A DNA stretch of 64,000 bases from a virus. The stretch lies in the IMG/VR virus record IMGVR_UViG_3300035670_000110, positions 1 to 64,000 of that record; one strand, 5' to 3'. The notes below the pieces were generated by a model. It ran no database searches and was not told where the DNA came from. It saw nothing but the letters and a program-made list of their open reading frames with translations. Positions 33,804 through 63,228 of this stretch are shown piece by piece. Made by a program: the position numbers and the translations under genes. Every line of letters starts with the position of its first letter. The first letter of the stretch is position 1.

Positions 33804-35420
33804 TTATCCTCCTAATTGAGATTCCAATTGTAGCACGCGATTCTTTAGGTCGTCAATACTTTCTTGCTGTTCCTTTACTACCGCTAGCAGAGCAGGAATA
33901 ATCATTTTTGAATGATATGATGGAATATCTCCCGAAATAGATGCTATAGGCATAACTTCAGCAATTTGTTCTGCTATGAATCCAAGTTCTGTTCCTCCAT
34001 CGATCCAATCAAATTGGACGGGAGTTAAGTTTAACACATCCTTATAATTAAAATCTATAGATTCTCTACTACCAATTTTATCTTCTGGAATATTTAATGT
34101 GTCTAATTCGATAAGAGGAATAATATTTTCTTTTACCGCAAGAGAAGACGCTACATATCCTATTTTTCCAGTAGAATCTATCTGTAAATCTCTAGCAGAT
34201 GTTACAGTGGTATTATATGCATCTGGAAATACTACAGATCCAGTTCCCGCAAAACTATGGATGCTGGCACTTTTTGCCTTCATAAAGCCGTTATTATTTA
34301 GCCAGAATACTGAGTCTGATGCATTTGCAAATCCAAACCAAAGTCTTCCCTGACTAAAAGGTAGGGCGGCTAAATACATGGGCGCACCATCTCCTGGATA
34401 TAACTGTATTACTCCGTCATTTCTTAAAATTATCCTATCAGATGGGGCAATTATTGCTGGGGTGCCAAAATAATCTCCAATTTTAAACCCAGCGATTGTT
34501 CCAGCACTGGCGGTAATCACGCCAGTAAATGATCCAGAGGTGGCAGTTATCTGTCCAGTAAATGAACCAAATCCTCCATTAATAAAAGTGCTACTTATAC
34601 TGCTACTATTAAGGTTCGTGCCAAAAATCTCTCCACCAGTAATATATCCACCTACAATTAAGCCACCATAAATATTTCCGGCATAAATATCGACGCTATC
34701 TATTGTTCCACCCTTAATATAACCCCCACCTATATAACCTCCAGAAACACTGGCACCGTATAAATTTCCAACAAATGATCCAGATGTTGCATTAATATTT
34801 CCCGTGAATGATAAATTTCCAGAAACTGTATCTAAGTTAAAATTATTTAATCCGGCTACCGAATTAATTCCTGATGCAGATAAAATCAAGTATCCATTAG
34901 TATTAGATGCTGTTAAAGAGCCTCCTAGTGCTAGGTCGCCTAAAATATTGCCAGACGTTGCTTGAATTTCCCCCCGCACAGCAACATTAGAAAATATTGC
35001 ATTTCCCTGGCCGCTTAAAAACCATCCAGTATTTCCTATATATTTATCTTCCCAACTTTCATATATAACTGGAAAAAATGATGATGCGCCGAGAACTACA
35101 ACTTGAGATTGACCAATTTCATCTAAATACTCTATTACCGTTGTGCCAATGGCAGACCCAGTAAAAATATCTCCTTCATTCCCCACGGCTACAACGGAAT
35201 AATAAGTTTGAGCATCTGTAGACCCAGTAAAAGAAATTTTCATTCCTGGAGTTATTGAAGATGCAGAAATATTATTTAAAACTGATGGAATAACTCCGTC
35301 AAAATTATAGGATGAAATGTCTGGATTTTTTATTCTGAATGCCCCGTTTGAATCTAAATATCCTGTTAAATTAATAAGAGAGGAGTTACTTTCTTCGGAG
35401 CCAAAATTATTTGTCGCCAT
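33804..35420 (-). CDS. Tail fibre/spike protein with C-terminal intramolecular chaperone (peptidase S74-like)
   Basis: G.A.FSNV.VRG.I, Gly-rich ATSGSF.G repeats, SSLAVKENI...L.PV.F.W....GFIAEQ, terminal coiled coil. Confidence 0.8.
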   Translation of the reverse strand: MATNNFGSEESNSSLINLTGYLDSNGAFRIKNPDISSYNFDGVIPSVLNNISASSITPGMKISFTGSTDAQTYYSVVAVGNEGDIFTGSAIGTTVIEYLDEIGQSQVVVLGASSFFPVIYESWEDKYIGNTGWFLSGQGNAIFSNVAVRGEIQATSGNILGDLALGGSLTASNTNGYLILSASGINSVAGLNNFNLDTVSGNLSFTGNINATSGSFVGNLYGASVSGGYIGGGYIKGGTIDSVDIYAGNIYGGLIVGGYITGGEIFGTNLNSSSISSTFINGGFGSFTGQITATSGSFTGVITASAGTIAGFKIGDYFGTPAIIAPSDRIILRNDGVIQLYPGDGAPMYLAALPFSQGRLWFGFANASDSVFWLNNNGFMKAKSASIHSFAGTGSVVFPDAYNTTVTSARDLQIDSTGKIGYVASSLAVKENIIPLIELDTLNIPEDKIGSRESIDFNYKDVLNLTPVQFDWIDGGTELGFIAEQIAEVMPIASISGDIPSYHSKMIIPALLAVVKEQQESIDDLKNRVLQLESQLGG

Positions 35421-36345
35421 TAAGGGTTGCCCTCCCCCAAATGACTTTTTCGCTTTTATTTATTTGCAACCATTCGCCCCTCCACTTACCATCTCTTAAA
35501 TAATATCTTGCTATTGCAACATAAAATAAAAAGTTTGGCTTAGAATCTATATAAAAATTGTTGGTAAATGAAGGTCCATTAGCATATTGTAATAAATTTG
35601 TCGAATAGGCCGGTGGAGTTTTTTCATCGACTATTGTTAAATTTTTATTTCCATTTAACATTAAATATTTTGGAATCTTAGCGGTATTTTCTTTATCATA
35701 ATTTTTAAATGCATAAATTGGAATATCTCTTACGGCTTTAACGGGGGTTCCTGTTACTGGACTTTTTACATTAATTAAATTATCAAACACTTTATCTTTT
35801 GATATTTTAACAGTGAATGAAGATAAAATTCTTTTTGGCTGTACCTCTCTCACAAAAGAATTTTCTGGGTCAACTGAGCCGCTATCTGCACCTAATGCTC
35901 TAAAGTTAGGAACTTCTATATCTAGCACCCAAGTTTTTCCTGTCTGAGATAATCCCGATTGTAAGATTGTATATTCTCTTCCAATCTCAGTACCTTTTAA
36001 ATTATCTAACAAACTGCTAGAAGAAAAAATTCTTACTTTATCTCCCTTTTTTAAATCTTTTCTATCCTTGGCATCTTTTAATAAAATTCTTAATTTATAA
36101 TATCCAACCCTGTTATGAGGCTGTTTAGAAAACTTACTAAACTTAAATTCTCCCCCCACTCCGCCATATTCATCAAAGGGCCTTCCTACAGTTAATTCTA
36201 TTTCTTCTTTGCTCATTAATGGGCACGCGGGAGGCACTTTAATCTGAAAACTTTGAGAGACGGCAACCTCCTCATAGGCTTCTCCCTCAATGGCGAATCT
36301 TAAATTATTATTAGGCCATAAGGTGTTAATGGTTAATTTAGTCAT
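35407..36345 (-). CDS. Minor tail-region protein
   Basis: Position in the tail operon. Confidence 0.55.
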   Translation of the reverse strand: MTKLTINTLWPNNNLRFAIEGEAYEEVAVSQSFQIKVPPACPLMSKEEIELTVGRPFDEYGGVGGEFKFSKFSKQPHNRVGYYKLRILLKDAKDRKDLKKGDKVRIFSSSSLLDNLKGTEIGREYTILQSGLSQTGKTWVLDIEVPNFRALGADSGSVDPENSFVREVQPKRILSSFTVKISKDKVFDNLINVKSPVTGTPVKAVRDIPIYAFKNYDKENTAKIPKYLMLNGNKNLTIVDEKTPPAYSTNLLQYANGPSFTNNFYIDSKPNFLFYVAIARYYLRDGKWRGEWLQINKSEKVIWGRATLNGDK

Positions 36346-37295
36346 GACACTCCGTAGTTAAATCCTAAAGATAAAGAATATTCTATCGTTAAAGGGATGG
36401 ACGCTGGCTTTCTGATAGGAGTCGGCAGGACTGCTCTAGATATTAGGCCATAGTTTGTATCTATAAAATAATTTCCTATATCAATTCTCATTGCATCTAA
36501 TAATACCGGCTCCGAAGAATCGTGCCAAATTCTTACAAAATTAATGTCTGACCATTCGGGAAGTCCTGTAACTGTAGCAGCACCCTTTTCTGTGGAAGAA
36601 ATAAAATATCCAGATGCAGCAGGGGTAGTAAAAGCAATGTCATAATAACTATTTTCATCTTTCATAAATCTAAAAAATACATTAGATGAAGCCGTTGATT
36701 GATTATATCCAGAAAGTATAAAATTATCCTGTGAGGTAAATGTTTCAATATACTGAAAGGCGCCGTCGGTTGACGAATACTGTAAATAATTATTTGCACT
36801 TGATGTTGGAGGTATATTAAATAATTGAGTTCCTATTCTGGCAAACTCTGTACTAATAAGTTCTGCTGCTGATGCTGATCCAAACTTAAGAAATAGGTCA
36901 ACCCGGTCAAAGTCGAACAGCAATGATCCATTAAGACCGATCGTAGCATCTGATATTCTAGATGGATAAAGACCTACCTCTCTAATTTCTGATTGAAATG
37001 GGTCATCAATTACTCCAGAATAAATCAATATATCATTATTATTTTCAAGATTTAAAGTTCCGCCGCGCACAACAGTTCTCCCTGATTCAAACTGCAGAGA
37101 GTTATTGGTAATCAGGGAGGTGGAGGCGGATAATGTATTTGGCTCATTACCTATTCCATAGGCTATACTGTTAGCAAAGTTAGGTATTATTCCAAGCAAA
37201 GATTTAATAATAATGGAGCGTCCTGCGGTGGTAAGGGCATTCTGCTGCTCATAGATTAATTCATTGTCTAAATAAAATCTATAGATTCCTTTCAC
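36342..37295 (-). CDS. Minor tail protein
   Basis: N.LTTAGR..I, IAYGIG, L.FE, IREVGLYP, IEYSL motifs. Confidence 0.7.
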   Translation of the reverse strand: MKGIYRFYLDNELIYEQQNALTTAGRSIIIKSLLGIIPNFANSIAYGIGNEPNTLSASTSLITNNSLQFESGRTVVRGGTLNLENNNDILIYSGVIDDPFQSEIREVGLYPSRISDATIGLNGSLLFDFDRVDLFLKFGSASAAELISTEFARIGTQLFNIPPTSSANNYLQYSSTDGAFQYIETFTSQDNFILSGYNQSTASSNVFFRFMKDENSYYDIAFTTPAASGYFISSTEKGAATVTGLPEWSDINFVRIWHDSSEPVLLDAMRIDIGNYFIDTNYGLISRAVLPTPIRKPASIPLTIEYSLSLGFNYGVS

Positions 37296-38863
37296 TGCTC
37301 AACCACCTCATATCTGGTGCCCAAGGAACTAGAGTCTTCAGTAACGCGGAAAATTCTCACACTAGTAATTATAGCATCGTTAACCTTTATGCTGAATGAA
37401 TAGTATGGAGAGCCTCCAGCAGTATAATTTAATTCAAATGCTTCTAAATATTTTTCATAATCGAATTTTGAATTTGAGGGATCTCCATAATCAAGGACTT
37501 GAGATTGTATTCTTGATACAAAATTTTGCACAATTTCATAAGCAGCCGTGTCAACGTAGGTGTCTGCGGAATTTGTTTGAGAAGGATCATAATACACTAA
37601 ATCATCTGAATTAAATCTTTCATACGCTGGAACATAATTAATAGCATCATAGTCTATTCCTGCCTCCAAAAACTCTTTTGTATTTTTAATCAACGAAAGA
37701 GTTATTCTTTCAACCTCTCTTGTGATTCTTCTAGAAATGTTAGGCATAAAAATTCTTTCCGCATCTTTCGGATAAGTAATTTCAGCCCTTTCATTCATAG
37801 GGGGTATATTTATTTCTGCTTTAGATGATCGTGTTGTTGGTACAAGATCTATAGCGTCAGACTCTTCATCGTATCGTGGAAGCCCCTCGTCCGACGGCTC
37901 TTCGATATCAAAATCCAGAGATGATTCTTGGAGTGCTTGTATCTGAAGTTCTAAATCTGTAATTCTATCAAGAATTTTCTGTAAATCTTCTTGAGAAATT
38001 CCTGATGGCGTCCCCCCGCCAGGTGGGGGCGGAGGTGGAGGAGGTGGTGGTGGGGGAGGTGGAGGTGGGGTAGGTTCAGGGGGCGCACCTGGCTTGTAAT
38101 CAAATGCGGCGTAAAGCGCTTTTTTTTCATCTGGAGTAATGTTACCATTGTCAACCGCTTCGACCAGTGCTTTTTGTTTCGGCACCTGCTTTTCGCCAAA
38201 GGCTTTTCTTCCACCCGATCCGGTGCCGACATTGGGCCATACATTTTTTATAACTGTTTTATCATAGTCTCCTAATACATTGTAATTATCTTTAAATGCA
38301 CGCCATCTCTCGTCCTCTTCTTTTTGTCCCTGATTAGTTGGAGGGGGAGTGGTTGTTGACGGCGGCGGAGAGGGAGTCTTGGGCGGAGGAGGGGGCGTTG
38401 GCGTTGGGCCTTCCGTTGGGGGAGGAGTCTTAGGGGGAGGAGGGGTATTGGGTGGACGAGGGGTCGATGTTGGCCTGGGTCTACTTAAAAGATTTTGCAT
38501 AATTTGCTTATTATTCTCTACAGTATCGGGGCTAGTGTTTTTAGAAACATTTTTATCCCTTGTAGTCGGAGCAGTTTCTGATTTATTACCTCTTTCAGGC
38601 TTAGTTTTGTCGGGCCGGATAGGGGGCAGGGGAACTGGCTTGTCGGGCCGGATAGGGGGCAGGGGAACTGGCTTGCCTGGTTCTGGCTTAAGTGGCCCTG
38701 GAGTAGGTTTGCCTGGTTCTGGCTTAAGTGGCCCTGGAGTAGGTTTGCCTGGTTCTGGCTTAAGTGGCCCTGGAGTAGGTTTAGATGGCTGCGGCTTAGA
38801 AGTACTAGGCTTAGGTGTTTGTGTTGTTTTTTTGGGTGGTGGTTTCGGGGGAATTTTAGCCAT
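37292..38863 (-). CDS. Proline-rich tail-region protein
   Basis: Tandem Pro-rich repeats and a long poly-Pro run, globular C-terminus. Confidence 0.75.
   Translation of the reverse strand: MAKIPPKPPPKKTTQTPKPSTSKPQPSKPTPGPLKPEPGKPTPGPLKPEPGKPTPGPLKPEPGKPVPLPPIRPDKPVPLPPIRPDKTKPERGNKSETAPTTRDKNVSKNTSPDTVENNKQIMQNLLSRPRPTSTPRPPNTPPPPKTPPPTEGPTPTPPPPPKTPSPPPSTTTPPPTNQGQKEEDERWRAFKDNYNVLGDYDKTVIKNVWPNVGTGSGGRKAFGEKQVPKQKALVEAVDNGNITPDEKKALYAAFDYKPGAPPEPTPPPPPPPPPPPPPPPPGGGTPSGISQEDLQKILDRITDLELQIQALQESSLDFDIEEPSDEGLPRYDEESDAIDLVPTTRSSKAEINIPPMNERAEITYPKDAERIFMPNISRRITREVERITLSLIKNTKEFLEAGIDYDAINYVPAYERFNSDDLVYYDPSQTNSADTYVDTAAYEIVQNFVSRIQSQVLDYGDPSNSKFDYEKYLEAFELNYTAGGSPYYSFSIKVNDAIITSVRIFRVTEDSSSLGTRYEVVEQ
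38607..38782. repeat. Intragenic tandem repeats: 2 x 33 bp followed by 3 x 36 bp
   Basis: ttgtcgggccggatagggggcaggggaactggc x2; ttgcctggttctggcttaagtggccctggagtaggt x3. Confidence 0.95.
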
Positions 38864-41800
38864 TATTTACCAACCTCAATTATTTCTATATTCATAGTGG
38901 GGCCGGAATTATTTACAGAATGAGATATTGCAGATACAATAAACACTCTATCTCCAAAATTTTCATTTTCTAAGGTGTATCCTCTTGTCTTATCATATAT
39001 TCTTACTTTGTCCCCTAATTCTATTAATGGGTTTGGAAATATTTCTAAAGACATTTTTAACCTTTGTCTACCACAATATCTAGTTATCCATTTCATCATA
39101 TTTTTAGCCTGAGCCATAGTCTGTATGTATTGGCTATCTATAGATACAGATTGAGAGCCATATATTGATAGATTCTGCTCTCTTCTTGTTACTCTAAGTT
39201 TATCCTCTTCGACAATATCATAATAGTCTTTCATATTTATTTGCCCAAAACTTAATTCTTCTAATTGTATTCCCACTATGTATAAAGGCATAAGACTTTC
39301 TTCTCCCAGCGTTATTGGCCCAGAGGATGTATTGACAACAACTAGCCTTGCTCCAAAAGTTGTTGGACTATATTTTTTAATCATATATTCAGGATTAACT
39401 TTAGAAATATCTACTAGGGCACTAGAAAATGCTGGTAGGTTATAACGAATATTATATTCTTTTACTTGTCTTACAAGTCTTGCAAAATCATTAAAATAAA
39501 CTTTTATTTCTTCATTTTTAAAATAAAAATCTTTGCTTACTGGAAGTATTCCGCTTTGTATCTTTTGATCTAAAAAGTTTGCTGATTTAAAGTATGGATC
39601 ATTATCTTTCCCCGCTGGCCTAGCAGCGGCTGCAATATATTCATATATTGCTTGAGAATCATTACGAACAAACATAAATATTCTTTTACTATTAAGTCCA
39701 AAGGCCGGTCCATTTGGTTCAATATAGGAATTAACCTTCCTATTTCCATAATAAACTACATATTTAACAGCATTTTCATATTGTTTAATTCTTATTTCAA
39801 GTTCGAATACCGGGTCTGCTGTATTAACATTTTTTATTACCTGAACATCAGTATTAGTTACAGTATTTGCTCCGACCGGGGCTGTAAATAAAAGTTTTGG
39901 CTCGTATTTTGATTTACTATTCAGGCTGACTTTATACATTCTAAGGTTGCCCGCGACGGCTTTTTCAGAAACGGAAGATTTTCCAGATCCTACTGATTCC
40001 ACTTCAACAAAGTATCCTTCATTTTTATCATTCAATCCAAATCCTATACCTGCAATTGAAGAGTTGGTTGACATGATATAAGTATTGGCCTTTCTTTTCT
40101 TTAAAGAAGAGAATAATCTCATTCTTGTTGAAATACTATTAGGAACAAAATCTAAGTCAATATATTGACCGTATATATTTCTTTCTCCAGACATGTACAT
40201 GTATGGATCAAAATCTCCATCTACCGCAGCATCGACCTGAGCGTTCATATCTTTTAATTTCTGAGTCACTATTTGAGTAGGGCCATCTTTATCAAATTGC
40301 TCTAAAATAGTTATGTCTTCCTGCGGAGATTTTGGTCCAGATAATTTTAAGAATCCCAGGTAAGATTGTAAATCTTCAAACGCAAGGGAACCTATGTTTT
40401 CTTTAACAGACTTATATGTATTTCTATCTATATAATTAAATTTTGTAGTAGCCTTTATATCTCCGGGAACTTTATAATTATTTGTTTCCCCTAGAGTTAA
40501 TTTAAATGTTTTATTAATATTTATTCCATCACTGTTTTCTGCTAATGCATAATGTTCTGCAACATCAGAAGAGAACTTCCCTCTCCCGTCTCCAACAACT
40601 TTATATGTATATTCACCACTATTTTGAGAAATTACTTTAAGTTTAACATCTACAATTAATCCTATTATTGATATAGAACCACCTTTTGGTAAGTATCTTA
40701 ATTCTTGTAAAAATTCTTCTTCACTAAATAATATTTTTAATCTGCCATTTATGGAAAATAATTTTCCTTTATATTTTATATATTCATTATCAATTAATAT
40801 ATAACCTTCATAATCTGAAAAAGTTCTACCTTCTCCTCTATCTATAAAAATTATTAATGATTGTTTTGCAGTTAAAATTTCTGACTGACTATCAAAATAT
40901 TCAAAACTATTAGTGGTTGAATAAATAAATCTGACCGCCTCTTCTTCATTTAAGGCTGTATACTCTTCAGTGAAAACATCTTTCAGTCTGTTAGATTTTA
41001 AATTTAGGACTAGGTTTGCCGCTCCGAGCGCCGATGAATTGTCATCTCCTGGTTTCCACAACGGCATTGTTTTATAAGTGTAATTAGAAAATGCTAAAGC
41101 GGTCGCGGGGATATCTTCAATGAGATCATTTAAAACTTTTTCTGGAAGAGTGAGAAGCCCTGGCTCTTTTCTAGGGCCATAAGTGTGATAAAAAACTTCT
41201 CCATCGGTTATTGGATTAATTTTTTGTTCACTATAAGAAATTACATTTGATTTGTAATCATTAATATATGCATACTCTGCTACATTTGCGCTTGCTGTTT
41301 TTGTATAATCTTCATTAAAAATAAACCAAAAATCTGTTTTTGCTATAGCATCATTTTCATTTTGGGATGGTGGAGGATAGTCTTCGTGAACCCAGAATCC
41401 AAATGTTGAAGAATAACTCCATTTTTCTTGTTCGTCCGGTAATGCGTCAGTATTTCCATTATAAAAATACCAATCATTTCTCCACCAAACAAATTTAGTC
41501 GGGTCGGGGTTGGGATTGTATTGACTATCTGAAGCACTTGATGCATCTATTTTTGCTTTTTCTACCAACCTTTCTTTTGTCATAACTTTTAACTTTCCAG
41601 TAGCATCGTAGAACATTGAGCATTGTGTTGCCAGGGCTAATTGTTCTAAAACTTCTGCAACAGTCTGTTCTTTTTTACAAAAGAAATTTCTAATGCTTAC
41701 ATCCTCTCCAGTGTTACCCAGCCCCGTTCCACTTCTTTCAAACTCCATCCCTGTAATTCCAGCATTATCTAAAACTGTCAAAATTGCGGTAGAGAGTTTT

Positions 41801-43026
41801 GTTCCAGTTTTATATTGCAACATTAGATCTGGAGCAGATTTTTCTCTTAAATATTTAAAGCCATCCTCTATATTAACAGACACCGAATAATCTTCTCCTA
41901 CATTCCATTCATTAGAATACATAACCTTTAAGGGAAATATTGCAGAAGAAGATTCTGTATTAACAATTTGATAAAAGGTAAATTTTGTATCTGGGTTTAA
42001 CATTTTAAGATTGCTCAAGGTGCTTGAAAAAAGAAATTGATCCTCTTCATTAGATAGTGAAAGATTTCCATTACTAGACACAATAGATCCAACGGGAAGA
42101 CCCATGTTTGCCGAATCTCCTATAGTAGAATTAAAACTAAATGATTCAGTATACGATGTTAGATCTATTTCTAATCTTGGAGAAAGTTCTATAATCTCTA
42201 ATCCATATGATTTTCTGTTTATTTTATACGTCAAGAATCTAATGCCTCTCACCGTTTTAACATTAGTTGAATTTTCATCTGTTAACTCAGTTATATCTGA
42301 AAGCCTATTAACACTTGCCGACCATTCATTATTAGATAAATATAGTTCAAGGATTCCGTCTGAAAATAAAGAGGCTGCGGAAGATGCAGAAGGAAAGGCA
42401 ACCTTCCATTCTTCCCCCTCCAAATATTCTACCTGAAACTGACTGGGAACAGTCATATGGTTTTGAACCTTTATAGTAATTTTGTTCATGGGAAATTCTT
42501 TTTGATATATAACAAATGGGCTGGCGCAAAAAATAAATCTTTCATTATTAGACACTCCCCTTGAATCTGGGTCAGCAGCCATCACTTTTGCACTATTAAA
42601 ATAATCATAGTCCCTGTTATAAGAGAATGGATAGTATCTTGGGGAGTCCGGGCTAATATTATCTACTCTCATTGACGTAGAATTTCTTGTAATTAAATTA
42701 TTTTTATAATGTTGCAGTAAAACTATTCCTGGGTCTGGTCTGTTGGGAAGAAATATTGACGATAAATCAGAGAAGAATTGCGATTCGGGGGAAAGTTTTA
42801 CCGTTCCATCATCGTAAAGGAAATAATTCTTCCCCTCTAAAACATTATTATTACTAATTAAACCTAAAAGAGGTTCGCCCGAATTAACAATTTTTGGATC
42901 TTTATAAATTCCATATTTGCGAATTTCTTGATACTTATTCATATTCCATTCGCCAATAACAATATGGGTGGAATTCACCCTATCAATGTTTTTGTATAAG
43001 TTTCTTATATCACCATAATCCAGCAT
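38863..43026 (-). CDS. Large minor tail (baseplate hub/central tail) protein
   Basis: 1387 aa, two genes after the tape measure; EWNMN start, QCSMFYD..G.L, SQYIQT..QA, FPNPLIELGD. Confidence 0.8.
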   Translation of the reverse strand: MLDYGDIRNLYKNIDRVNSTHIVIGEWNMNKYQEIRKYGIYKDPKIVNSGEPLLGLISNNNVLEGKNYFLYDDGTVKLSPESQFFSDLSSIFLPNRPDPGIVLLQHYKNNLITRNSTSMRVDNISPDSPRYYPFSYNRDYDYFNSAKVMAADPDSRGVSNNERFIFCASPFVIYQKEFPMNKITIKVQNHMTVPSQFQVEYLEGEEWKVAFPSASSAASLFSDGILELYLSNNEWSASVNRLSDITELTDENSTNVKTVRGIRFLTYKINRKSYGLEIIELSPRLEIDLTSYTESFSFNSTIGDSANMGLPVGSIVSSNGNLSLSNEEDQFLFSSTLSNLKMLNPDTKFTFYQIVNTESSSAIFPLKVMYSNEWNVGEDYSVSVNIEDGFKYLREKSAPDLMLQYKTGTKLSTAILTVLDNAGITGMEFERSGTGLGNTGEDVSIRNFFCKKEQTVAEVLEQLALATQCSMFYDATGKLKVMTKERLVEKAKIDASSASDSQYNPNPDPTKFVWWRNDWYFYNGNTDALPDEQEKWSYSSTFGFWVHEDYPPPSQNENDAIAKTDFWFIFNEDYTKTASANVAEYAYINDYKSNVISYSEQKINPITDGEVFYHTYGPRKEPGLLTLPEKVLNDLIEDIPATALAFSNYTYKTMPLWKPGDDNSSALGAANLVLNLKSNRLKDVFTEEYTALNEEEAVRFIYSTTNSFEYFDSQSEILTAKQSLIIFIDRGEGRTFSDYEGYILIDNEYIKYKGKLFSINGRLKILFSEEEFLQELRYLPKGGSISIIGLIVDVKLKVISQNSGEYTYKVVGDGRGKFSSDVAEHYALAENSDGININKTFKLTLGETNNYKVPGDIKATTKFNYIDRNTYKSVKENIGSLAFEDLQSYLGFLKLSGPKSPQEDITILEQFDKDGPTQIVTQKLKDMNAQVDAAVDGDFDPYMYMSGERNIYGQYIDLDFVPNSISTRMRLFSSLKKRKANTYIMSTNSSIAGIGFGLNDKNEGYFVEVESVGSGKSSVSEKAVAGNLRMYKVSLNSKSKYEPKLLFTAPVGANTVTNTDVQVIKNVNTADPVFELEIRIKQYENAVKYVVYYGNRKVNSYIEPNGPAFGLNSKRIFMFVRNDSQAIYEYIAAAARPAGKDNDPYFKSANFLDQKIQSGILPVSKDFYFKNEEIKVYFNDFARLVRQVKEYNIRYNLPAFSSALVDISKVNPEYMIKKYSPTTFGARLVVVNTSSGPITLGEESLMPLYIVGIQLEELSFGQINMKDYYDIVEEDKLRVTRREQNLSIYGSQSVSIDSQYIQTMAQAKNMMKWITRYCGRQRLKMSLEIFPNPLIELGDKVRIYDKTRGYTLENENFGDRVFIVSAISHSVNNSGPTMNIEIIEVGK

Positions 43027-53590: not shown

Positions 53591-53607
53591 TTACAGTGCT
53601 TTTAGAA

Positions 53608-54384
53608 TCAGAAGATTCTGTCGATGATCTTACCATAAGCGGCATTACCATCGGGGGCAACTAAGCCAGCGCCAGTAGCAGGCATAACTCGGAAGTTAAC
53701 GGGGAAGACGGTAGCATCGTCACGACGAACGCCAACGCCAACTGCCTCTACAGAAACTGCACGATAGAGCATATAAATTCTCTCTGCCTTCTTACCTGCG
53801 CCACCAGATTCGGCAACTGAGGTTGGAGCAGAACCTACGAAGCAAACGGAGCGCTCTACGGGAGCGATACCCAAAGAACCACCATTTAGATGAAGTAGAT
53901 TTTGCACCTGTCCTACTGCTGAACCAGAAGCATAAACTGCTGATGCTCCTGCGGTTCCCAGAACGTTAGTAGCGCCGTCTGCTGATGCAGTAAGGTTGTA
54001 GGACTGTCCAAGATCTGTACTCTGGAAGTCTCCAGTAGCACCTGTGGCTCCACCGATAGCAACATACATATTTTCTAATGTTGCCTCTGTGAGGCTGGTT
54101 GCCACTGTAACTCTTTGAGAAGTCTTGAATAGTCTTGCGGTATCAAGGAGTTGGTCAACCATGACATCATTGAAGGTAGGCTCAATGTTTAGAGTTACAC
54201 CCTCCATGGTGTAGCCTAGGTGATACCAGTCACCGTCGGGTACAGAAACTACGTTAGTAGGAATCTGAGCGGAAACTGTTGAAGAACTTACATTAATCTT
54301 GGTATTTTCTTGTCCTGCTTTGCCAGCATATACAACTGCTGCGCCAACGATAATATTTTTTGCATTAAAGTCTCTTGCGGCCAT
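53608..54384 (-). CDS. Major tail (tube) protein
   Basis: NIIVGAA, LGYTMEG, VDQLLD, TSLTEATLEN, FPVNFR; GGAGG RBS. Confidence 0.88.
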   Translation of the reverse strand: MAARDFNAKNIIVGAAVVYAGKAGQENTKINVSSSTVSAQIPTNVVSVPDGDWYHLGYTMEGVTLNIEPTFNDVMVDQLLDTARLFKTSQRVTVATSLTEATLENMYVAIGGATGATGDFQSTDLGQSYNLTASADGATNVLGTAGASAVYASGSAVGQVQNLLHLNGGSLGIAPVERSVCFVGSAPTSVAESGGAGKKAERIYMLYRAVSVEAVGVGVRRDDATVFPVNFRVMPATGAGLVAPDGNAAYGKIIDRIF

Positions 54385-54454
54385 TTATTATTTTCACCTC
54401 CTTGGAGCATTAAAATAAAAACGCTTCCTCACAATTATGTTACCATGTAAGAAA

Positions 54455-56080: not shown

Positions 56081-56986
56081 TTAAATCACCAAGTATCTTG
56101 GCTGCTTATAAATTGACAATAAATTATCTACGATTAAATTTCCTGTTCCTGTTGCAAAATCTTTTCCATACTTAATATCGTAGGAGTCATTTGATAATTC
56201 AGCAATATTTTTATTTCTTATATTGGAATCACTGCATAGATAATCTTCTATTAATAATGCTGTTGATTCTTCTATTTCTGCAGGAACATAGTCCCATCCC
56301 CACACTCCATCAATTTTATACGAATAATCTTTTTTAAATATTCCATCATAATAAAAAACTGAAAACTTTGGAAACTCTAATGTTTCTTTGTTTTCTAGCG
56401 AACTATTAACAATTTTTATCCTGCTGTCTGATGGACCTATTTCTATCGGGTAATCAAACTGGTAAGTTGAATTATCTCTTTCATAAACTAATAGATCATC
56501 TTCATAGATTGAGTCAATTCTGTATATTTTTTCTGGCAAAGATAAAATATCTGTATTGTTTCCATAAACAGTCACAGTTCTTTTTTCTTTATTAAAATTA
56601 AAACCAAGATGAGAGTTTATAATTAATCTTGCTCTTCTTTCTAATCTTCTTAGTTGTTCATCTGTTACTGAATCTTGTATTGTAGCCAACTCTCTGATTC
56701 TATCTGGAGTTGCATATGGCCTAACTAATGAAGCAAATTGAATTTCATTATAGGCCCCAGATCCACTAGTGGTTACATACTCTATTTTTAATTTTCTATC
56801 ATATTGTGTTGAGTCTGCGTTAAGAGTAACAGTATATACGGAGGATGCTCCCACAGAGGCTTTACCGCCCTGAATAAATTCTTCAGTATCTAAATCATAC
56901 ACCTCAAAATAAACATTCGTTGCGTATGCGCTAGCACTATATAAAATGTTAAGAGGGGCATTGTCTTGTCTTAAATATTCAATCAT
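56081..56986 (-). CDS. Head-to-tail adaptor
   Basis: RPYATP, G.WGWDYVP, TGNL.VD.LL..Y; follows the major capsid gene. Confidence 0.75.
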   Translation of the reverse strand: MIEYLRQDNAPLNILYSASAYATNVYFEVYDLDTEEFIQGGKASVGASSVYTVTLNADSTQYDRKLKIEYVTTSGSGAYNEIQFASLVRPYATPDRIRELATIQDSVTDEQLRRLERRARLIINSHLGFNFNKEKRTVTVYGNNTDILSLPEKIYRIDSIYEDDLLVYERDNSTYQFDYPIEIGPSDSRIKIVNSSLENKETLEFPKFSVFYYDGIFKKDYSYKIDGVWGWDYVPAEIEESTALLIEDYLCSDSNIRNKNIAELSNDSYDIKYGKDFATGTGNLIVDNLLSIYKQPRYLVI

Positions 56987-57042
56987 TGAACACCGCCATA
57001 TAAATTTATATAACTATTTTACTATATATTAAGATATGGAAA

Positions 57043-57064
57043 GAGGGCCGATTTCTCGGCCCTC
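57043..57064 (-). terminator. Terminator after the major capsid gene
   Basis: gagggccga-tttc-tcggccctc hairpin followed by TTT on the minus strand. Confidence 0.7.
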
Positions 57065-57085
57065 CAACCACATTATTTAGTTATA

Positions 57086-58204
57086 TCAGCCAGTTACGGC
57101 ATTGGCCTTGGCCATTGCAGAGAGTTCTTCGATGTTTAGACCCATTCGGACATAAACGGTGTACTCTACTGTGTCCTTCTTTGGCTTGAACTCACGATGG
57201 ACAGTAACGTCTCTCTGGAAGCCCCAGATTCTGTTCTGTGGGAATGTGAGGTCAACGTAGTGGTCTGGGTATAGTGGAACTTCCATTACGGGAATACCGA
57301 AAATGGAGGTTGTCATACCTGCAGGGCCACCAACGCGGGCGGGGGTGCCACGAAGAATACCGGCAGCGATATCCTCAGGAACACCTCCTGAGCCAATCTG
57401 ACGTAGATCAGTTAGAAGGGTTTGAACGTTCTTTGTGGAAGCATAGAACTTCAACTCTTGACGACGAGCCTTGAACTTACGGGGCAATGCGTTGTAAAGA
57501 GACTCAAAGAAGGCGATTGCTGAACCACTCTTCAGTTGTCCTGAAGTAGTTGCAGCGGTGAAGAATGTGGATGCTGTAGTAAGGGTTGCAGCAGTACCGA
57601 AGTGAGTACCACCAGCAGCGCCGTCAGCGAGTGCAACGAACCCATCGATTGTGTATGGGTAGGTTGTACCAGCGTAGGAAGCAGTTCCCTGAGCAGCCAG
57701 ACCATTGATGGCGATATCTTCAAGATCGTTACCGAATTGACCAGCCATTAGGCGGACAATGTGATCCTCAAGAGCGGAGCCTTCAATGTTATCCTCAAGT
57801 GCCTCAGTTGAGAGTTCGTAGTCCAAGCGGAACTTAGTTGTGACGATTTCAACCTTGGTAAATTGAGCACCACGGTTTGCATAGCCTGTTTCGCCTGCAC
57901 CAGCATCAAAGATGTTCTCACTTGCTTGTGATGCTTTGCGGATCAAACGAGTACCAACCTGAATCTTATCGAATTCAGCGGTGTTGGCTCGCATGATTTG
58001 TCTACGACCGTCGTTGCCTAATACCATCTGATCAAACACATAGTCTAGGAATTGACGGGATTGTTCTGGAAGTAGCACGCCACCATTTTGAGTCAATGGG
58101 TTGCTTGTCAAGTTCTCCATATCACCGCTAGATGATAGGTCGGAGATGATTGCACCTGTACCAACATTTACTGCGGCAGCGGCCTTATTAATTGCGTCAC
58201 TCAT
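57086..58204 (-). CDS. Major capsid protein (HK97 fold)
   Basis: GGVLLPEQSRQF, LDYELSTEALEDNIEG, NDLEDIAING, LTFPQNRIWGFQRDVTVHREFKP. Confidence 0.93.
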   Translation of the reverse strand: MSDAINKAAAAVNVGTGAIISDLSSSGDMENLTSNPLTQNGGVLLPEQSRQFLDYVFDQMVLGNDGRRQIMRANTAEFDKIQVGTRLIRKASQASENIFDAGAGETGYANRGAQFTKVEIVTTKFRLDYELSTEALEDNIEGSALEDHIVRLMAGQFGNDLEDIAINGLAAQGTASYAGTTYPYTIDGFVALADGAAGGTHFGTAATLTTASTFFTAATTSGQLKSGSAIAFFESLYNALPRKFKARRQELKFYASTKNVQTLLTDLRQIGSGGVPEDIAAGILRGTPARVGGPAGMTTSIFGIPVMEVPLYPDHYVDLTFPQNRIWGFQRDVTVHREFKPKKDTVEYTVYVRMGLNIEELSAMAKANAVTG

Positions 58205-58232
58205 GCTTTTCTTTACACCTCTCTTTCATATT

Positions 58233-58772
58233 TTAGTTAAATAGATCTGCGGAACTGAGGAAGCGTCCGCCCCATAATGATTTCTTCATTACGGGTTGCT
58301 CTGGGATACTATTTTCTAGTTCACCAGACTTCTTAATTGCTGTCTCTTCTTCTACAGATTCAACTCTGCTTGCAATTTCTGTAGCAGCGTTATTGAGATC
58401 AGCCAAACTCTTAGTTACCTCTTCGTATTTTGCTTGAAGTTGCCCAACTTTTTCATCGACAGCCTTTGCCAACTCAAGAACAGCGCTTGTAATTTTATCA
58501 AATGACTCTGTGCTTGACTCAACTGACTTTGTTAGGGCCTCTTCCACAAATGACTTAACTTCGCCTAAAGCCTTTTCCATGTCAAAAACTTCTGAGGAAG
58601 TGTCTTCTGATTCGGCTTCTCCAGCCTCAACAACATCAGATTTAGCCATTGCTAGTGCCTCATTAACAACGTCCTCTATAGTTTCTTCTACTTCAAACTC
58701 AACCTCTTCTGAAGTTTCGTCTACAGCCTGGGCGGTGTCAAGTTCTTCATGGCTTGTTTCGTTGTCAGCCAT
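58233..58772 (-). CDS. Probable separately initiated scaffold protein (in-frame internal start)
   Basis: GAAGGAGGT-GTTGAA-ATG inside the protease ORF, giving MADNETSHEE... (179 aa). Confidence 0.65.
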   Translation of the reverse strand: MADNETSHEELDTAQAVDETSEEVEFEVEETIEDVVNEALAMAKSDVVEAGEAESEDTSSEVFDMEKALGEVKSFVEEALTKSVESSTESFDKITSAVLELAKAVDEKVGQLQAKYEEVTKSLADLNNAATEIASRVESVEEETAIKKSGELENSIPEQPVMKKSLWGGRFLSSADLFN

Positions 58773-60437
58773 TTCAACACCTCCTTCGTTTTTTTGTAAA
58801 GTCTCTAAGGACTTTTTTGTTGACAAGGGATTTTCCTTTGGCAACAAGTCTGTATCGTAAGAAGTTCTTTTGAACTTTCCTGTTTTTAGCGCGTGCAAAA
58901 ATCCTTTAACTCTGGCCTCAGCCCATTCATTTTCTGAAGAAGAATTATTTTTTGAAGATACTGGATTATTTCTGTAGGACTCTATTCCGCGATTAAAAAC
59001 CTTTAGTAATGTTTCAAAATCGGTTCTCTTAGAATTAACGTTACCATATTTTTCATTATGTTGAGAAACTAGATTTTCTAAATTCTTTTTAATGTTTTCT
59101 GGAATAACTTTATTAACACTAATAACCTTTAATTTAACAAGTTCTTCTATGCTTTTATAAACAAAATTTTGTGTGGAAAGAAATTTATTTCCAAACTCTT
59201 TATACAGTCTTAATTCGGCAATGTTATCTGAAATAACCTCTACACGGCCCTTATTAATTTTATTGTCTTCTCTATAAGCAACAAAAGATCCTACCTCTAT
59301 TTCTGTAGGATCAGACTTATACATTCTTTTCTTCTTTCCATATGCTTTTTTAGGAGACATTGTGGCAGAAGCGGATACAGCACCTGGAAGCCCTTGTTCA
59401 GCATTTCTAGCAGGAGTATTTTCACTTGTGACTGTTTCTTTCTCAATATCTTCTGCTTTGTCTAAGGAGTCTATTGCTCTTAAAGTACTCATTTTATGCC
59501 CCACTCTAGTATCTGTTGCCTCCCAGCCCTCTGATCCTTTTCGATAGACTCTAATTAATACTGCTGGGTCGCCATCTTCTGCATTAACTGTAAAGTCTGA
59601 ATCAGGAACATCGATGCTGCCACTTCTGACCACTCTTTCTACTTTCCCGCGTGCAGTGCCACCAGAAGAATTCCAGGAAACAAATTGTCCTACGCGAACT
59701 GAATCTGCTTTTGCTAAAAAGCCGTCCACTATTTTTCCTATTTCTTGATTTTTGTTAATGTCTGTTGATTCTACCCATCCTATTTCATTCATATTTGTTG
59801 AGCAAACTGGGCATTGGAAGGAATCTGATTTTTCAGTTATTGCGATTTTATCTATTGGACACCAAAAAACATTCTCTGTTGTAAACTCTGTGGCGATACC
59901 GCTGGTCACTATTTGATCATCGACTTTTTGAATGGAAAAAATATTAGCAAATTGGTTTGCAGGAGAATCAACTAGGGATAACTCCATTAACTCGTATTCT
60001 TTTACTATTCTTACAGAATTATCATCTTCGTCGTCCATTTTATTTTCATAGTCAACAATTCTTCCACCAATAGAAAATCCTGTTAAAGTTCCATCTAAAA
60101 CCATTTGCCAAATGTTTTCTGCGCCTTTTGAAATATAGGCGTCTACAAAAATACCGTTATATGTTTTACCAGTTTCTTTATCAAAGAAGGAGTTTTCTCT
60201 AAACGAAACAACTTTTCCGGCAGGAATGGGCTGATGCATTAATCTTACATTTCCACGAAAATTCTCAAAAGCCTTTCTTGATGCTTCTGATAGCAAGACA
60301 TCACCTTGCCTGTCAACATTATCTAATGTAGCAAACCCGCTAACGATTCTTCTTTCTTCATCCACCTTAGCGATGGGCATTGTTAATCTTAGGCTGTCGC
60401 CATCTAAATCAAAGTGTGCTTTATTCATATCAACCAT
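58233..60437 (-). CDS. Prohead protease fused to inserted domains and a C-terminal scaffold
   Basis: HK97-type protease motifs (VSGFAT..N.D..GD, MHQ, GFSIGG, ELSLVD.PAN), zinc ribbon, Tudor-like domain, acidic coiled-coil tail. Confidence 0.9.
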   Translation of the reverse strand: MVDMNKAHFDLDGDSLRLTMPIAKVDEERRIVSGFATLDNVDRQGDVLLSEASRKAFENFRGNVRLMHQPIPAGKVVSFRENSFFDKETGKTYNGIFVDAYISKGAENIWQMVLDGTLTGFSIGGRIVDYENKMDDEDDNSVRIVKEYELMELSLVDSPANQFANIFSIQKVDDQIVTSGIATEFTTENVFWCPIDKIAITEKSDSFQCPVCSTNMNEIGWVESTDINKNQEIGKIVDGFLAKADSVRVGQFVSWNSSGGTARGKVERVVRSGSIDVPDSDFTVNAEDGDPAVLIRVYRKGSEGWEATDTRVGHKMSTLRAIDSLDKAEDIEKETVTSENTPARNAEQGLPGAVSASATMSPKKAYGKKKRMYKSDPTEIEVGSFVAYREDNKINKGRVEVISDNIAELRLYKEFGNKFLSTQNFVYKSIEELVKLKVISVNKVIPENIKKNLENLVSQHNEKYGNVNSKRTDFETLLKVFNRGIESYRNNPVSSKNNSSSENEWAEARVKGFLHALKTGKFKRTSYDTDLLPKENPLSTKKSLETLQKNEGGVEMADNETSHEELDTAQAVDETSEEVEFEVEETIEDVVNEALAMAKSDVVEAGEAESEDTSSEVFDMEKALGEVKSFVEEALTKSVESSTESFDKITSAVLELAKAVDEKVGQLQAKYEEVTKSLADLNNAATEIASRVESVEEETAIKKSGELENSIPEQPVMKKSLWGGRFLSSADLFN

Positions 60438-60467
60438 GGTGTTTTAATTATATTATATATAACTTTA

Positions 60468-62093
60468 TTAATTTTGCTGTCTTCCGTCGCCCTGTGTTGC
60501 CCTTGGCATTTCCGCTGAATCTGATGCATTAGAAGATCTTTCTTGATCTCTTACCCTATTTCTAGTTGCTTGTGCTGTTTGCTCTGATGCTTGTGGGCCA
60601 GTTAATATTACAGGATTATCCCCATCAGGTAGGCTGGACTTTCCAAGTCTTTCTCTTACCTCATTGGGAACAATAACTCTCATTCTTAAATATCTTTCAT
60701 CAATTTTTGATTGAGTTTCTTCGTCAGTCAGGGTTAGTTCATTAAATTCAAATTTAAATATGTCTGTTTTTTCAGCAATAATTTTATTAATTTTCTTTTC
60801 AAGCGCGTCCTGTGCTGGACGGCAGACTTGTTCTTTAAATGTTCTGTCTGACTCTCTTGCCGCAGCCAATCCAATTCCTTCAGTAGATCCTACTTTAGAT
60901 GCTGGAACTCTATGGGCCATTAAGATTTCTTCTTTATTCATTTTTTTATAGTTATTAAATGATGAATCTTGAATGTTTGTTTCAATAGGCTCCATCTTCA
61001 TTTCCACTTTAGTTTCTGGGGTATCTCCTGGAATAGGAATGATGGCTGTTCTATGAGACTGACCTCTTAGATTTCCCTGAAAAAATTCAAACAGTCTTTC
61101 TTCTGCCTGACGACTCATCTTTGCGCCCTTTAGCCAGAAAATATATCTTGGAACTGCCTTGTTCTCAAAGTACTCAAGATTAAATCTGGACGCAAACTCA
61201 TTTCCTGCCATTGCATTTTTAGCAGCAACAATTGCGGGAAGTCCGTAATAAGTGTTAGTGGGCGTGTAATTCTTAATATGAATTATTTCATTTGGCCTTG
61301 GGTCAGTTGTTATCGGGTTCTTTTCTTTTCCTTCAAAGTTTCTAAAGAACACGGCCTTGCCGTTGACGATTTGTACAAAGCCGTCACGCAATCTACGCAC
61401 TCGCATTGTAGAGGCGGGAATATGACCAATGTAACCGATTTCGCCATTAACTTTCCGACCGATTTCAATATACCCATTACCCGTTGCCTCCGCATCTATA
61501 TAAGATTTAATTAGTGTCATAGTAAATGTATCATCGTCATTACGGGATTCAAGCCATTCTATTGCCTGCTCTCTTTGTCGGGCAATCTTTCTTCTGGCTC
61601 TTGCCAATTGGTCTGGGTCATTTATCTCTTCAAGTTTTTGTATTATTTCCAATTTAGGCAATAAATCGTATCCTAGACCAACTATGTTTGCAACCTTTGC
61701 ATTAATTGCAGAATAGTTTGGAGCGGAAAGTTCATATATTTTTGCTAAAGCCCCTAAATTATATTGAGGCTCTACAACGTCAAATATTCCATACCCGTAC
61801 TTATCTGGAATAATTTGTTTTGAGGTTGCTTCATCTCCAGCATAAACATTATCGTCTGCTGTAACAATTTCTCCCCCGGCAGTTATAAGCGCTTTGCTTA
61901 ATTTTCTACGAGCAGATCTTTTAAAATTTTGAGACAATCCGTTAAGTTGCAAGATGCTATCTGCATCCTGTTTAAAATCATCTTTCTCTGGTTGCATTGG
62001 ATTGTCTGATGATACAGACTTTCCTATGTGAACGCTATCGATCCAAAGATCTTCTTGTTCGTTTTGCATCTCTCCACGCTCCAGTATCTCCAT
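60468..62093 (-). CDS. Portal protein
   Basis: D.EATGNGYIE, GHIPA..MR, NEIIH, YYGLP, YFENKAVP, PNEVRERLG. Confidence 0.93.
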   Translation of the reverse strand: MEILERGEMQNEQEDLWIDSVHIGKSVSSDNPMQPEKDDFKQDADSILQLNGLSQNFKRSARRKLSKALITAGGEIVTADDNVYAGDEATSKQIIPDKYGYGIFDVVEPQYNLGALAKIYELSAPNYSAINAKVANIVGLGYDLLPKLEIIQKLEEINDPDQLARARRKIARQREQAIEWLESRNDDDTFTMTLIKSYIDAEATGNGYIEIGRKVNGEIGYIGHIPASTMRVRRLRDGFVQIVNGKAVFFRNFEGKEKNPITTDPRPNEIIHIKNYTPTNTYYGLPAIVAAKNAMAGNEFASRFNLEYFENKAVPRYIFWLKGAKMSRQAEERLFEFFQGNLRGQSHRTAIIPIPGDTPETKVEMKMEPIETNIQDSSFNNYKKMNKEEILMAHRVPASKVGSTEGIGLAAARESDRTFKEQVCRPAQDALEKKINKIIAEKTDIFKFEFNELTLTDEETQSKIDERYLRMRVIVPNEVRERLGKSSLPDGDNPVILTGPQASEQTAQATRNRVRDQERSSNASDSAEMPRATQGDGRQQN

Positions 62094-62361: not shown

Positions 62362-62368
62362 GTACCAA

Positions 62369-62377
62369 ATAATATCA
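62369..62377 (-). promoter_or_regulatory. Extended -10 promoter (TGATATTAT), probably leaderless
   Basis: 7 nt upstream of ATG 62361; no Shine-Dalgarno. Confidence 0.5.
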
Positions 62378-62379
62378 TA

Positions 62380-63228
62380 TTAAGGGTTATTTGTATCGAA
62401 AATGTTCACAAAAGTAGTAACTTTTTGTACTGCGGGGGTATTTATAAACCCTAAATCTGTTTTTAAAAAGAATGTTGTTCCATATCTAGAGCCAAAAAGA
62501 ATTCTTACAAAATCTCCTACTGAACTACTAATTGGGATAAATTGTGATGATGCACTTAATTCATAAATTTGATTATCAGTTATTGATAAAACTTTATCCC
62601 CTTCAGTGATATTAAATCCATCGATAAAAAGATCATCATTGATAAGGACAGATGCAGAAACATATTCTAAAAGACTCTCTTCGTTAGCGACACTAACATC
62701 GAAAAGGTATCTGGACTGATTTTTAATCGGCTGATAAACTATACCACTGGATGCCGAAATAAAATTATCTTCTACATAGTCTATAACATTAATAGAAAAT
62801 GACGCTGTATCTGATACCACTAGTTTTGCTGTTCCAGCACCTGTAAACTCTTCATGTAAATATTGTGGATCTGAGTCCAACAAAGATGAATCCATAATAT
62901 ATAGATTTTGTATATTAAAATTTGCTCCAGAGTAGTCTCCAAAACGAATGTTAAACGAATCATTGCTGGAAGTTAATAATTTTTCGGGAAAGGTGAAGGT
63001 TAAATGAGACCATTTACCTTGAGAAATAAAAGATCCTGATTGTCCGTTAACGTAACAATTTACGATACTATCGTCAAATACTAGTTGACCCGTATTATTA
63101 TTAATACTGGCAGAAAACAGTAATTTTGAGTTAGAAGATGACGAAAATATATTTAAAAAATTATAAAAAGAATCTGTATCATCATTTAATCTAACAAAAC
63201 AACCGACTGAACCAAGATATTTGATCAT
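62380..63228 (-). CDS. Putative virion protein (LamG/ConA-like segment)
   Basis: YVNGQ...GKWSHLTFTF; Ser-rich with four SAS motifs. Confidence 0.5.
   Translation of the reverse strand: MIKYLGSVGCFVRLNDDTDSFYNFLNIFSSSSNSKLLFSASINNNTGQLVFDDSIVNCYVNGQSGSFISQGKWSHLTFTFPEKLLTSSNDSFNIRFGDYSGANFNIQNLYIMDSSLLDSDPQYLHEEFTGAGTAKLVVSDTASFSINVIDYVEDNFISASSGIVYQPIKNQSRYLFDVSVANEESLLEYVSASVLINDDLFIDGFNITEGDKVLSITDNQIYELSASSQFIPISSSVGDFVRILFGSRYGTTFFLKTDLGFINTPAVQKVTTFVNIFDTNNP

Follow-up and report, generated by a model that had tools for sequence, protein, structure and literature searches.

A Conserved [S/T]-A-S Motif on Peripheral Virion Proteins of an Uncultured Siphophage Lineage, a Candidate O-Glycosylation Sequon

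Gene Content of the Window

The window analyzed here is the first 64 kb of an 88.6-kb virus record of IMG/VR (IMGVR_UViG_3300035670_000110, hereafter G000; completeness 72% by CheckV), and our subject is a three-residue motif, [S/T]-A-S, that recurs in its tail, fibre and lectin-fold proteins. The window has a GC content of ~36%, and almost every gene lies on the minus strand. Scans with PHROG and Pfam profiles define a siphovirus structural module at 33.8-62.4 kb, encoding the portal, protease, capsid, adaptor, tail tube, a 3092-aa tape measure and distal tail proteins, as well as a replication module with DnaE, RecA, primase and helicase. A fibre-like block that holds proteins of 1085 aa and 557 aa lies beyond the window, at 70798-80857 of G000. 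The features discussed are collected in Table 1.

Table 1. Features of the window and of the adjoining part of G000; numbers attached to SAS and TAS are residue numbers.
Feature	Coordinates	Strand	Matches and motifs
282-aa two-domain β protein	62380..63228	-	predicted N-terminal ConA/LamG-like lectin jelly-roll; SAS39, TAS141, SAS158, SAS191, SAS225
538-aa terminal fibre-like tail protein	33804..35420	-	weak tail-fibre PHROG matches; SAS52, TAS170, SAS181, TAS303, SAS384
317-aa tail protein	36342..37295	-	phrog_9983; SAS56, SAS140, TAS201
1387-aa minor tail protein	38863..43026	-	phrog_10359; SAS213, SAS236, SAS497, TAS577
162-aa fibre-tip-like protein	9249..9737	-	phrog_8780 minor tail protein / tail fibre C-terminal matches; SAS85
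Major capsid protein	57086..58204	-	phrog_1623; TAS174, TAS210 (of 372 residues)
Tail tube protein	53608..54384	-	phrog_2175/476; TAS132 (of 258 residues)
384-aa family-1 (GT-B type) glycosyltransferase	10237..11391	-	phrog_7162 (E=4.7e-31); PF13692 at 24.5 bits, below the cut-off of 27
Sugar-nucleotide/glycosyltransferase block	3..5696	-	GT10-like fragment (3-656), DUF6165, DegT aminotransferase, NAD epimerase, GDP-mannose 4,6-dehydratase, unnamed open reading frames (Pfam)
Carbamoyltransferase, NodU/CmcH type	12172..13809	-	PF16861, PF02543
Two PF11397 GlcNAc-type transferases	63979-65142, 67223-68452 of G000		67.4 and 56.0 bits (cut-off 21)
Large terminase, TerL	16877-18658		
RecA	22567-23574		
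WhiB-family open reading frame	7984-8265 (gene given as 8086-8262)		PF02467, 50.9 bits
DUF732 domain protein, 131-aa open reading frame	14197-14592		one SAS

Motif Carriers and Their Folds

The initial annotation of the window had drawn attention to recurring Ser-Ala-Ser in unrelated virion proteins and had proposed it as a glycosylation sequon. Its counts of SAS per protein were all correct: four in the 282-aa protein (FSASI, ISASS, VSASV and LSASS, with 0.20 SAS expected), three each in the 538-aa fibre and the 1387-aa protein, two in the 317-aa protein, and one each in the adaptor (residue 17), the protease protein (residue 355), the 162-aa protein and the tape measure. It had seen none in DnaE, terminase or RecA, which is true of DnaE and TerL; RecA has one, and a further SAS in the 131-aa open reading frame (ORF) had been missed. 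Its broader statements stand, in that several proteins without detectable sequence homology share one short motif far above composition, and the carriers are peripheral virion-type proteins.

With TAS included, the 282-aa protein is the densest carrier in the window (five motifs, 0.28 expected by composition), alongside the 538-aa fibre (five; 0.85), the 1387-aa protein (four; 0.94) and the 317-aa protein (three; 0.46). Beyond the window, the 1085-aa protein has nine SAS against 0.87 expected, and the 557-aa protein has four. Among relatives, homologs of the 538-aa fibre carry 20 motifs (G011, 1291 aa) and 22 motifs (G016, 1479 aa) where ~4 are expected, the G016 ortholog of the 317-aa protein has eight against 0.77, the G016 tail tube five against 0.51, and an 891-aa protein of G016, encoded two genes from the 384-aa glycosyltransferase, has 19. 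The 282-aa family itself comprises 33 distinct orthologs from 80 related contigs (31-56% identical), each with 1-6 SAS where 0.2-0.6 are expected; summed over the family, there are 136 SAS against 12.9 and 58 TAS against 6.0.

An AlphaFold2 model of the 282-aa protein (predicted local distance difference test, pLDDT, 82.9) has two β domains, and its fold matches, weak at template-modelling (TM) scores of 0.2-0.3, are all lectin-type jelly-rolls: a trans-sialidase lectin domain, pentraxin, CBM40 and the lectin-like half of a clostridial receptor-binding region. The matches to clostridial neurotoxin receptor-binding folds were considered as a sign of a toxin and dismissed, as they share only the generic lectin-like jelly-roll. 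The C-terminal 400 residues of the 1085-aa protein are poorly modelled overall (mean pLDDT 55.4), reaching 71-83 over most of the last 150, and this C-terminus matches the same lectin-type fold class at 3.1-3.2 Å over ~150 residues. Cryptic paralogy between the two proteins was rejected at an hhalign probability of 2.9%, although both are lectin-type jelly-rolls by fold. In the predicted models the DSSP positions of the motif are mixed: within strands, at strand starts, and in loops following a strand.

On the capsid and the tail tube, the strings that had been described as loop insertions all exist, and GTASYAG, LTASAD and GASAVYASGS do lie in insertions; TTASTF lies in a segment that has diverged in the sister clade. 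The two capsid motifs are kept in 8/8 motif-clade genomes examined while their flanks vary, and TAS174 (GTASYAG) sits inside an insertion of 4-5 residues that is absent from the sister clade. In the tail tube, both LTASAD and GASAVYASGS fall within a Ser/Ala-rich stretch of ~25-30 inserted residues; it carries SAS or TAS at shifting positions in most motif-clade genomes, and the sister clade is without it.

Definition and Enrichment of the Motif

The tripeptide test that the initial annotation had called for was run on the window. The 19 structural proteins contain 15 SAS against 4.94 expected, a count reached by 0/1000 per-protein shuffles, and eight TAS against 3.63; the 55 non-structural proteins contain three SAS against 3.18. 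Ranked among the 4182 tripeptides observed in the window, SAS is third, tied with ASS (Poisson P=2e-4 before correction for ~8000 tripeptides), and from the window alone its enrichment is borderline after multiple testing. The proposed extension to GAS and AAS found no support, with six of each in the window against 4.92 and 4.72 expected. A motif at the level of DNA was ruled out by the mixed Ser and Ala codons over the 18 SAS sites.

The wider comparison rests on a close clade of five genomes (G000, G001, G002, G003 and G009; portal at least 83% identical), pooled, with expectations from per-protein composition. Observed/expected ratios are 2.81 for SAS and 2.65 for TAS, against 1.35 for SAT, 0.74 for TAT, 0.86 for GAS and 0.90 for AAS; when the middle residue is varied, S-A-S stands at 2.8x, compared with 1.55x for SGS and 1.43x for SSS. 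The 26 motif-rich proteins have 129 SAS, 77 TAS, 20 SAT and six TAT. These values define the motif as [S/T]-A-S, in which the Ala and the last Ser are strict, and the preference for TAS over SAT gives it a directionality unlike low-complexity sequence. Each of the five genomes has SAS or TAS in 12-23 of its proteins, and BLAST comparisons among the carriers found most of them unrelated. Spacings between motifs range from 11 to 358 residues, and only three 24-residue repeats, consecutive in the 1085-aa protein, carry the motif in phase, so that there are no long tandem Ser-rich repeats.

Composition-preserving shuffles within local stretches of 10, 20 or 40 residues leave the excess in place, and Ser/Ala composition therefore does not explain the frequency of SAS. 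At 20 residues, G000 has 65 [S/T]AS against 22.8 +/- 4.8, with similar values at 10 and 40; local shuffles give 36.1 +/- 6.2 for the 85 of G002 and 32.5 +/- 5.5 for the 84 of G016, a complete genome. The 20-residue shuffle also shows where in G000 the excess lies: 32 against 6.3 in the fibre-like block (0/500 shuffles reach 32), 12 against 2.8 in the distal tail proteins (0/500 reach 12) and five against 0.3 in the 282-aa protein, compared with six against 5.5 in non-structural genes, six against 5.9 in the core from tape measure to portal taken as a group, and none against 0.6 in the glycosyltransferase cassette proteins. The G000 excess is confined to the distal tail proteins, the 282-aa protein and the fibre-like block.

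Other high-scoring tripeptides (GLW, LWI, WIA, VTW, TWT, WTT, YGN, NFG and AYG) were set aside as not comparable; they come mostly from a few repeat proteins of G001 and G003 only. Such proteins include one of 1074 aa (G001 56097-59321; L087:16097-19321) and one of 1361 aa (G003 72112-76197; L099:12112-16197), in which the words GLWIA, VTWTT, AYGN and NFG recur through ~18-24 tandem repeats; neither occurs in G000, and both adjoin an alternative sugar cassette.

Clade Limits, Conservation and Turnover

The excess follows phylogeny. SAS is in clear excess in each close-clade genome (G000 41/13.5, G001 41/17.0, G002 51/18.3, G003 31/13.6, G009 43/11.3, observed/expected), and not in a sister clade of similar composition (portal 64-69% identical: G004 11/14.7, G005 15/12.9, G006 13/16.0, G007 10/15.2, G008 18/14.9, G010 13/10.2). 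By one fixed criterion, 26/500 proteins of the five close genomes are motif-rich, compared with 0/652 in the six sister-clade genomes. An intermediate clade (portal 71-77%) is enriched as well, G011 with 50 against 16.8 and G013 with 17 against 5.1; G012 is weaker, with 14 against 8.7.

Sister-clade orthologs carry unrelated residues at the motif columns, and the folds therefore do not need the motif. Within the motif clade it is conserved as a unit: motifs of G000 are kept as [S/T]AS in 65/110 ortholog comparisons of motif-rich proteins (59%), against 22% for background tripeptides, a contrast internal to the same alignments in which the ortholog pairs are not phylogenetically independent. 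Near-miss controls are retained less often, at 30% for [S/T]-x-S with a non-Ala middle residue, 19% for [S/T]-A-non-S and 3% for non-S/T-A-S. Yet positions turn over, the SAS sites of the 282-aa family being distributed over 20 alignment columns. [S/T]-A-S is a real motif, maintained by selection on peripheral virion proteins of one uncultured siphophage lineage.

The sister clade has a weaker excess of its own, in which [S/T/N]-G-T occurs at ~1.8x over local shuffles (G004 69 vs 38, G005 72 vs 41, G006 89 vs 47), and is found chiefly in large peripheral proteins, among them the homolog of the 1085-aa protein.

Glycosyltransferases and Sugar Cassettes

The genome is rich in glycosyltransferase (GT) and sugar-nucleotide genes. 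The idea that the motif would follow GT gene content among relatives did not survive the comparison: the motif-free sister clade has family-1 GTs too, with two each in G004 and G006, a GNT-I-like GT in addition in G006, and DUF6065 and other sugar genes in both. Possession of GT genes is no predictor of the motif. Two family-1 GT lineages, absent from the motif clade, are conserved within the sister clade.

Of the GT lineages, only that of the 384-aa family-1 enzyme occurs in all motif-rich genomes with a contig covering its region. Together with a 215-aa neighbour it is present in 7/7 covering contigs of the close and intermediate clades (G000-G003, G014, G015 and G016) and in 0/6 sister-clade genomes, a set that includes G004, with terminal repeats, and G006, which is 90% complete; for the fragments G009 and G011-G013, the region may lie outside the contig. 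Its neighbours in the Atlas are viral family-1 GTs, and a sequence comparison with PDB chains gave no match at E<=1. The 215-aa neighbour looks SLT/lysozyme-like by an Atlas lead only, rather than GT-like.

Two further sets of sugar genes vary among the motif-rich genomes. The block at the left end of the window occurs only in some close-clade genomes (G003 and G014, and partly G016) and does not track the motif. The second cassette (G000 63246-70793; L083:246-7793) sits between the 282-aa gene and the fibre-like block, partly beyond the window, and encodes the two PF11397 transferases, a PF13640 2-oxoglutarate (2OG)-Fe(II) oxygenase and three phrog_7084 (DUF6065-like) paralogs. At the same locus, G001 and G003 have SSB, a family-1 GT and a sulfotransferase, G003 also a methyltransferase. 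PF11397 homologs were found neither in G001 and G003 nor among the G016 proteins listed (at least 180 aa), all three genomes being motif-rich, whereas motif-free G005 has homologs of the whole cassette, and its homologs of the neighbouring 221-aa (70798-71463 in G000), 568-aa and 111-aa proteins carry 0 SAS. For the carbamoyltransferase, a possible glycan-tailoring enzyme, no ortholog was found in the 15 other genomes compared.

In the 523-aa tail protein (37292-38863), poly-Pro linkers contain as many as 16 Pro in a row; the protein holds 23/28 of the genome's triple-proline (PPP) sites, and its G003 ortholog has 27. We considered PPP runs as hydroxyproline-glycosylation targets of the PF11397 and 2OG-oxygenase cassette and rejected this, as nearly all of them lie in this one linker protein or its G003 ortholog and do not track the cassette.

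Gene order upstream of the portal is unusual: ribonucleotide reductase, the 1085-aa lectin-fold protein, the fibre-like block, the GT cassette and the 282-aa protein. Genes of the 1085-aa and 282-aa types are adjacent in L046/G011 of the intermediate clade, and two contigs from that clade (L045:3199-6081, L029:128-3040) have one ORF of 960-970 aa in which the first ~680 residues of the 1085-aa protein are fused to the 282-aa module, which shows that the two proteins form one functional unit upstream of the portal. In both arrangements the genes are found immediately upstream of the portal, without an intervening GT cassette, and are already motif-rich; the motif was therefore in place at this locus before the cassette and the fibre block were inserted.

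A Candidate Acceptor Sequon

We infer that the motif is recognized in trans: such a reader is the simplest explanation because the motif is short, position-specific, directional, fold-spanning, lineage-limited, conserved and positionally mobile, and the gene content makes a protein O-GT the leading candidate for it. Our preferred reading, to which we give a probability of roughly 0.45 on the sequence evidence, is that [S/T]-A-S is the acceptor sequon of a phage-encoded cytoplasmic protein O-GT. The first residue, Ser or Thr interchangeably, would be the acceptor, with the Ala at +1 and the Ser at +2 as recognition elements; the 384-aa family-1 GT is the best candidate for the priming enzyme, and the variable sugar cassettes would elaborate the glycan, which might shield the virion. 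The weak flanks and the mixed DSSP positions are more readily reconciled with a minimal recognition site than with one structural role.

Several characterized systems bear comparison. The general O-glycosylation sequon of Bacteroidota, D-(S/T)-(A/I/L/V/M/T), belongs to a periplasmic system; like the present motif it has three residues, with an acceptor Ser or Thr followed by a small residue such as Ala. The present motif differs from it in that Asp is not among the residues enriched at -1 (171 distinct sites), the third position is strictly Ser, and virion proteins fold in the cytoplasm. GtfA, the priming enzyme of the serine-rich repeat (SRR) adhesins of Gram-positive bacteria, is a GT-B enzyme. 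The absence of a PDB match for the 384-aa GT extends to GtfA structures, if present there. A Ser-Ala-Ser-based acceptor sequence is common to the present motif and to PsrP, GspB and Fap1 with their GtfA/GtfB O-GlcNAc transferase: PsrP has the repeat motif SASASAST (PMC2920850), SAS-type repeats make up the O-glycosylated part of streptococcal SRR adhesins (PMC2920850; PMC7661464), and serine-rich adhesin regions are described as heavily O-glycosylated in the cytoplasm (PMC7661464; PMC6973325). Those adhesins are secreted and have long tandem low-complexity repeats, whereas here single motifs are scattered in predicted folded β domains of virions assembled in the cytoplasm.

The two PF11397 proteins, which we take to be GT60 members, and the PF13640 oxygenase beside the 282-aa gene recall the eukaryotic Skp1 pathway, in which hydroxyproline receives GlcNAc. 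GT60 is described as comprising polypeptide α-GlcNAc transferases of protists, including that of the Skp1 hydroxyproline pathway (PMC8724618). Unlike what a GT60-based sequon would entail, the cassette does not co-vary with the motif, nor do poly-Pro runs track the cassette.

The nearest biological precedent is in mycobacteriophages. Work by Freeman et al. from 2023 (Cell Host Microbe) reportedly describes virion O-glycosylation in Che8, Corndog and Myrna, with glycans at the C-termini of capsid and tail tube subunits. Like those phages, G000 is an actinophage-type siphovirus with its own GTs, with the capsid and tube as candidate targets and with a proposed glycan coat. That phage-encoded GTs glycosylate mycobacteriophage virions is stated in PMC12363180, and virion glycosylation is given as established for Che8, Corndog and Myrna in the same source and in PMC12582341. 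No defined acceptor sequon for phage virion glycosylation was found in the literature searched; supplements and the primary mycobacteriophage paper may hold site data. Phage virion glycosylation is known for a few mycobacteriophages, and what is added here is a defined, testable candidate motif on one lineage.

Weighing the Explanations

A number of observations weigh against a GT-read sequon. The PF11397 transferases would have been the obvious candidates, since characterized members of the family glycosylate polypeptides directly, and they lie beside motif-rich genes, but they do not track the motif; the sister clade carries GTs without it. The link to the 384-aa GT is a single phylogenetic contrast, and the 215-aa neighbour and the 282-aa protein share its distribution. 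Family-1 GT-B enzymes, moreover, usually use sugar or lipid acceptors. SAS39 of the 282-aa protein lies inside a predicted strand, and the in-phase repeats of the 1085-aa protein mean that part of the signal could be structural. Unlike the sites reported for Che8, Corndog and Myrna, the motifs occupy scattered internal positions, for the most part in distal tail, fibre and lectin-fold proteins; those of the capsid and tube are far from the C-termini (174 and 210 of 372; 132 of 258), and most are on other proteins.

Chance, or an artefact of composition in proteins rich in Ser and Ala, is an explanation that the borderline rank of SAS in the window would allow but that is already refuted: the excess outlasts the local shuffles at all three scales, recurs in the 33 orthologs, in the five close genomes and in the intermediate G011, G013 and G016 (more weakly in G012), is absent from six sister-clade genomes of similar composition, favours TAS over SAT, and is conserved above background. 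More has to be said for an unmodified, lineage-specific structural habit, a strand-start or turn element favoured in the β-rich lectin-like and fibre modules of this lineage; folding or assembly would preserve it, and duplication and module exchange among fibre genes would spread it. The flanks, weakly patterned and with Asn at +4, are mildly β-strand-like in having hydrophobics at +3, +5 and +6 at frequencies of 0.41-0.50 against a background of 0.34; the motif is in phase in three repeats of the 1085-aa protein, both motif-dense modules belong to the ConA/LamG-type fold class, the fusions in L045 and L029 make module exchange real, and the [S/T/N]-G-T excess of the sister clade indicates that tripeptide preferences in such proteins are not unique. 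We nevertheless consider this explanation somewhat unlikely. The motif occurs in different folds (an HK97-type capsid, a tube insertion, distal tail proteins and lectin modules), on carriers mostly without sequence homology, and at mixed secondary-structure positions; it has no extended consensus, its density is kept while positions turn over, and same-fold orthologs of the sister clade do without it.

A short, specific, clade-wide and fold-spanning motif would suit any trans-acting reader, and the factor could be something other than a GT: the enzyme of another Ser/Thr modification such as phosphorylation or acylation, a chaperone or assembly factor, or a protease. A cut between Ala (P1) and Ser (P1') with a hydrophobic P3 resembles the sites of herpesvirus-assemblin-type proteases, and the residues before the four SAS of the 282-aa protein are F, I, V and L. 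We find a reader of this kind quite improbable, and rejected the prohead-protease site (hydrophobic-x-A/S, cut between Ala and Ser) specifically, since most of the carriers are tail or fibre proteins and so no part of the prohead contents, the head core as a group shows no excess, and hydrophobics at -1 reach only 0.38 against 0.34 over the 171 sites. We saw no kinase or acyltransferase whose distribution follows the clade, whereas GT and sugar genes are abundant.

If the sequon reading is right, it may be part of a larger system, although we think it unlikely that all of the following holds. The phages would run their own cytoplasmic protein O-glycosylation, with an [S/T]-A-S sequon, priming by a lineage-conserved GT-B enzyme and swappable tailoring cassettes, some genomes using PF11397 GTs and a 2OG oxygenase and others a family-1 GT with a sulfotransferase. 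The result would be a variable, O-antigen-like layer of sugar covering fibres, lectin modules, capsid and tail tube. In the sister clade, whose conserved GTs differ, the sequon would be another, of the [S/T/N]-G-T type, and sequon density would be selected while positions drift, as in the glycan shields of animal viruses.

A three-residue motif with this specificity, these clade limits and this selection makes the open question directly testable by experiment. If the sequon reading is true, glycosylated virion proteins could be predicted from sequence in uncultured phages, sequon density on phage surfaces would evolve much like that of animal-virus glycoproteins, and the motif and its enzyme would form a compact tag-and-enzyme pair for glyco-engineering. 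If the motif is unmodified, its lineage-wide, convergent use over unrelated folds is still unusual and needs its own explanation.

Host and Other Features of the Window

Despite the low GC content of the phage, the host is probably actinobacterial, because the window has a WhiB-family gene and a DUF732 protein and because the major capsid protein is ~42% identical to capsids of Streptomyces phages. TerL lies ~42 kb away from the portal (60468-62093). Genes of auxiliary-metabolism type are found at 6582-7595, 8470-8796, 12172-13809, 13809-14204, 15543-16100 and 23742-24080, with products that include an IMPDH/GMP-reductase-like protein, dCMP deaminase, the carbamoyltransferase, AdoMet decarboxylase, a SpoU methylase and MazG. 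Two adjacent tRNA genes, Asn-GTT and Gln-TTG, are located on the minus strand at 14788-14937.

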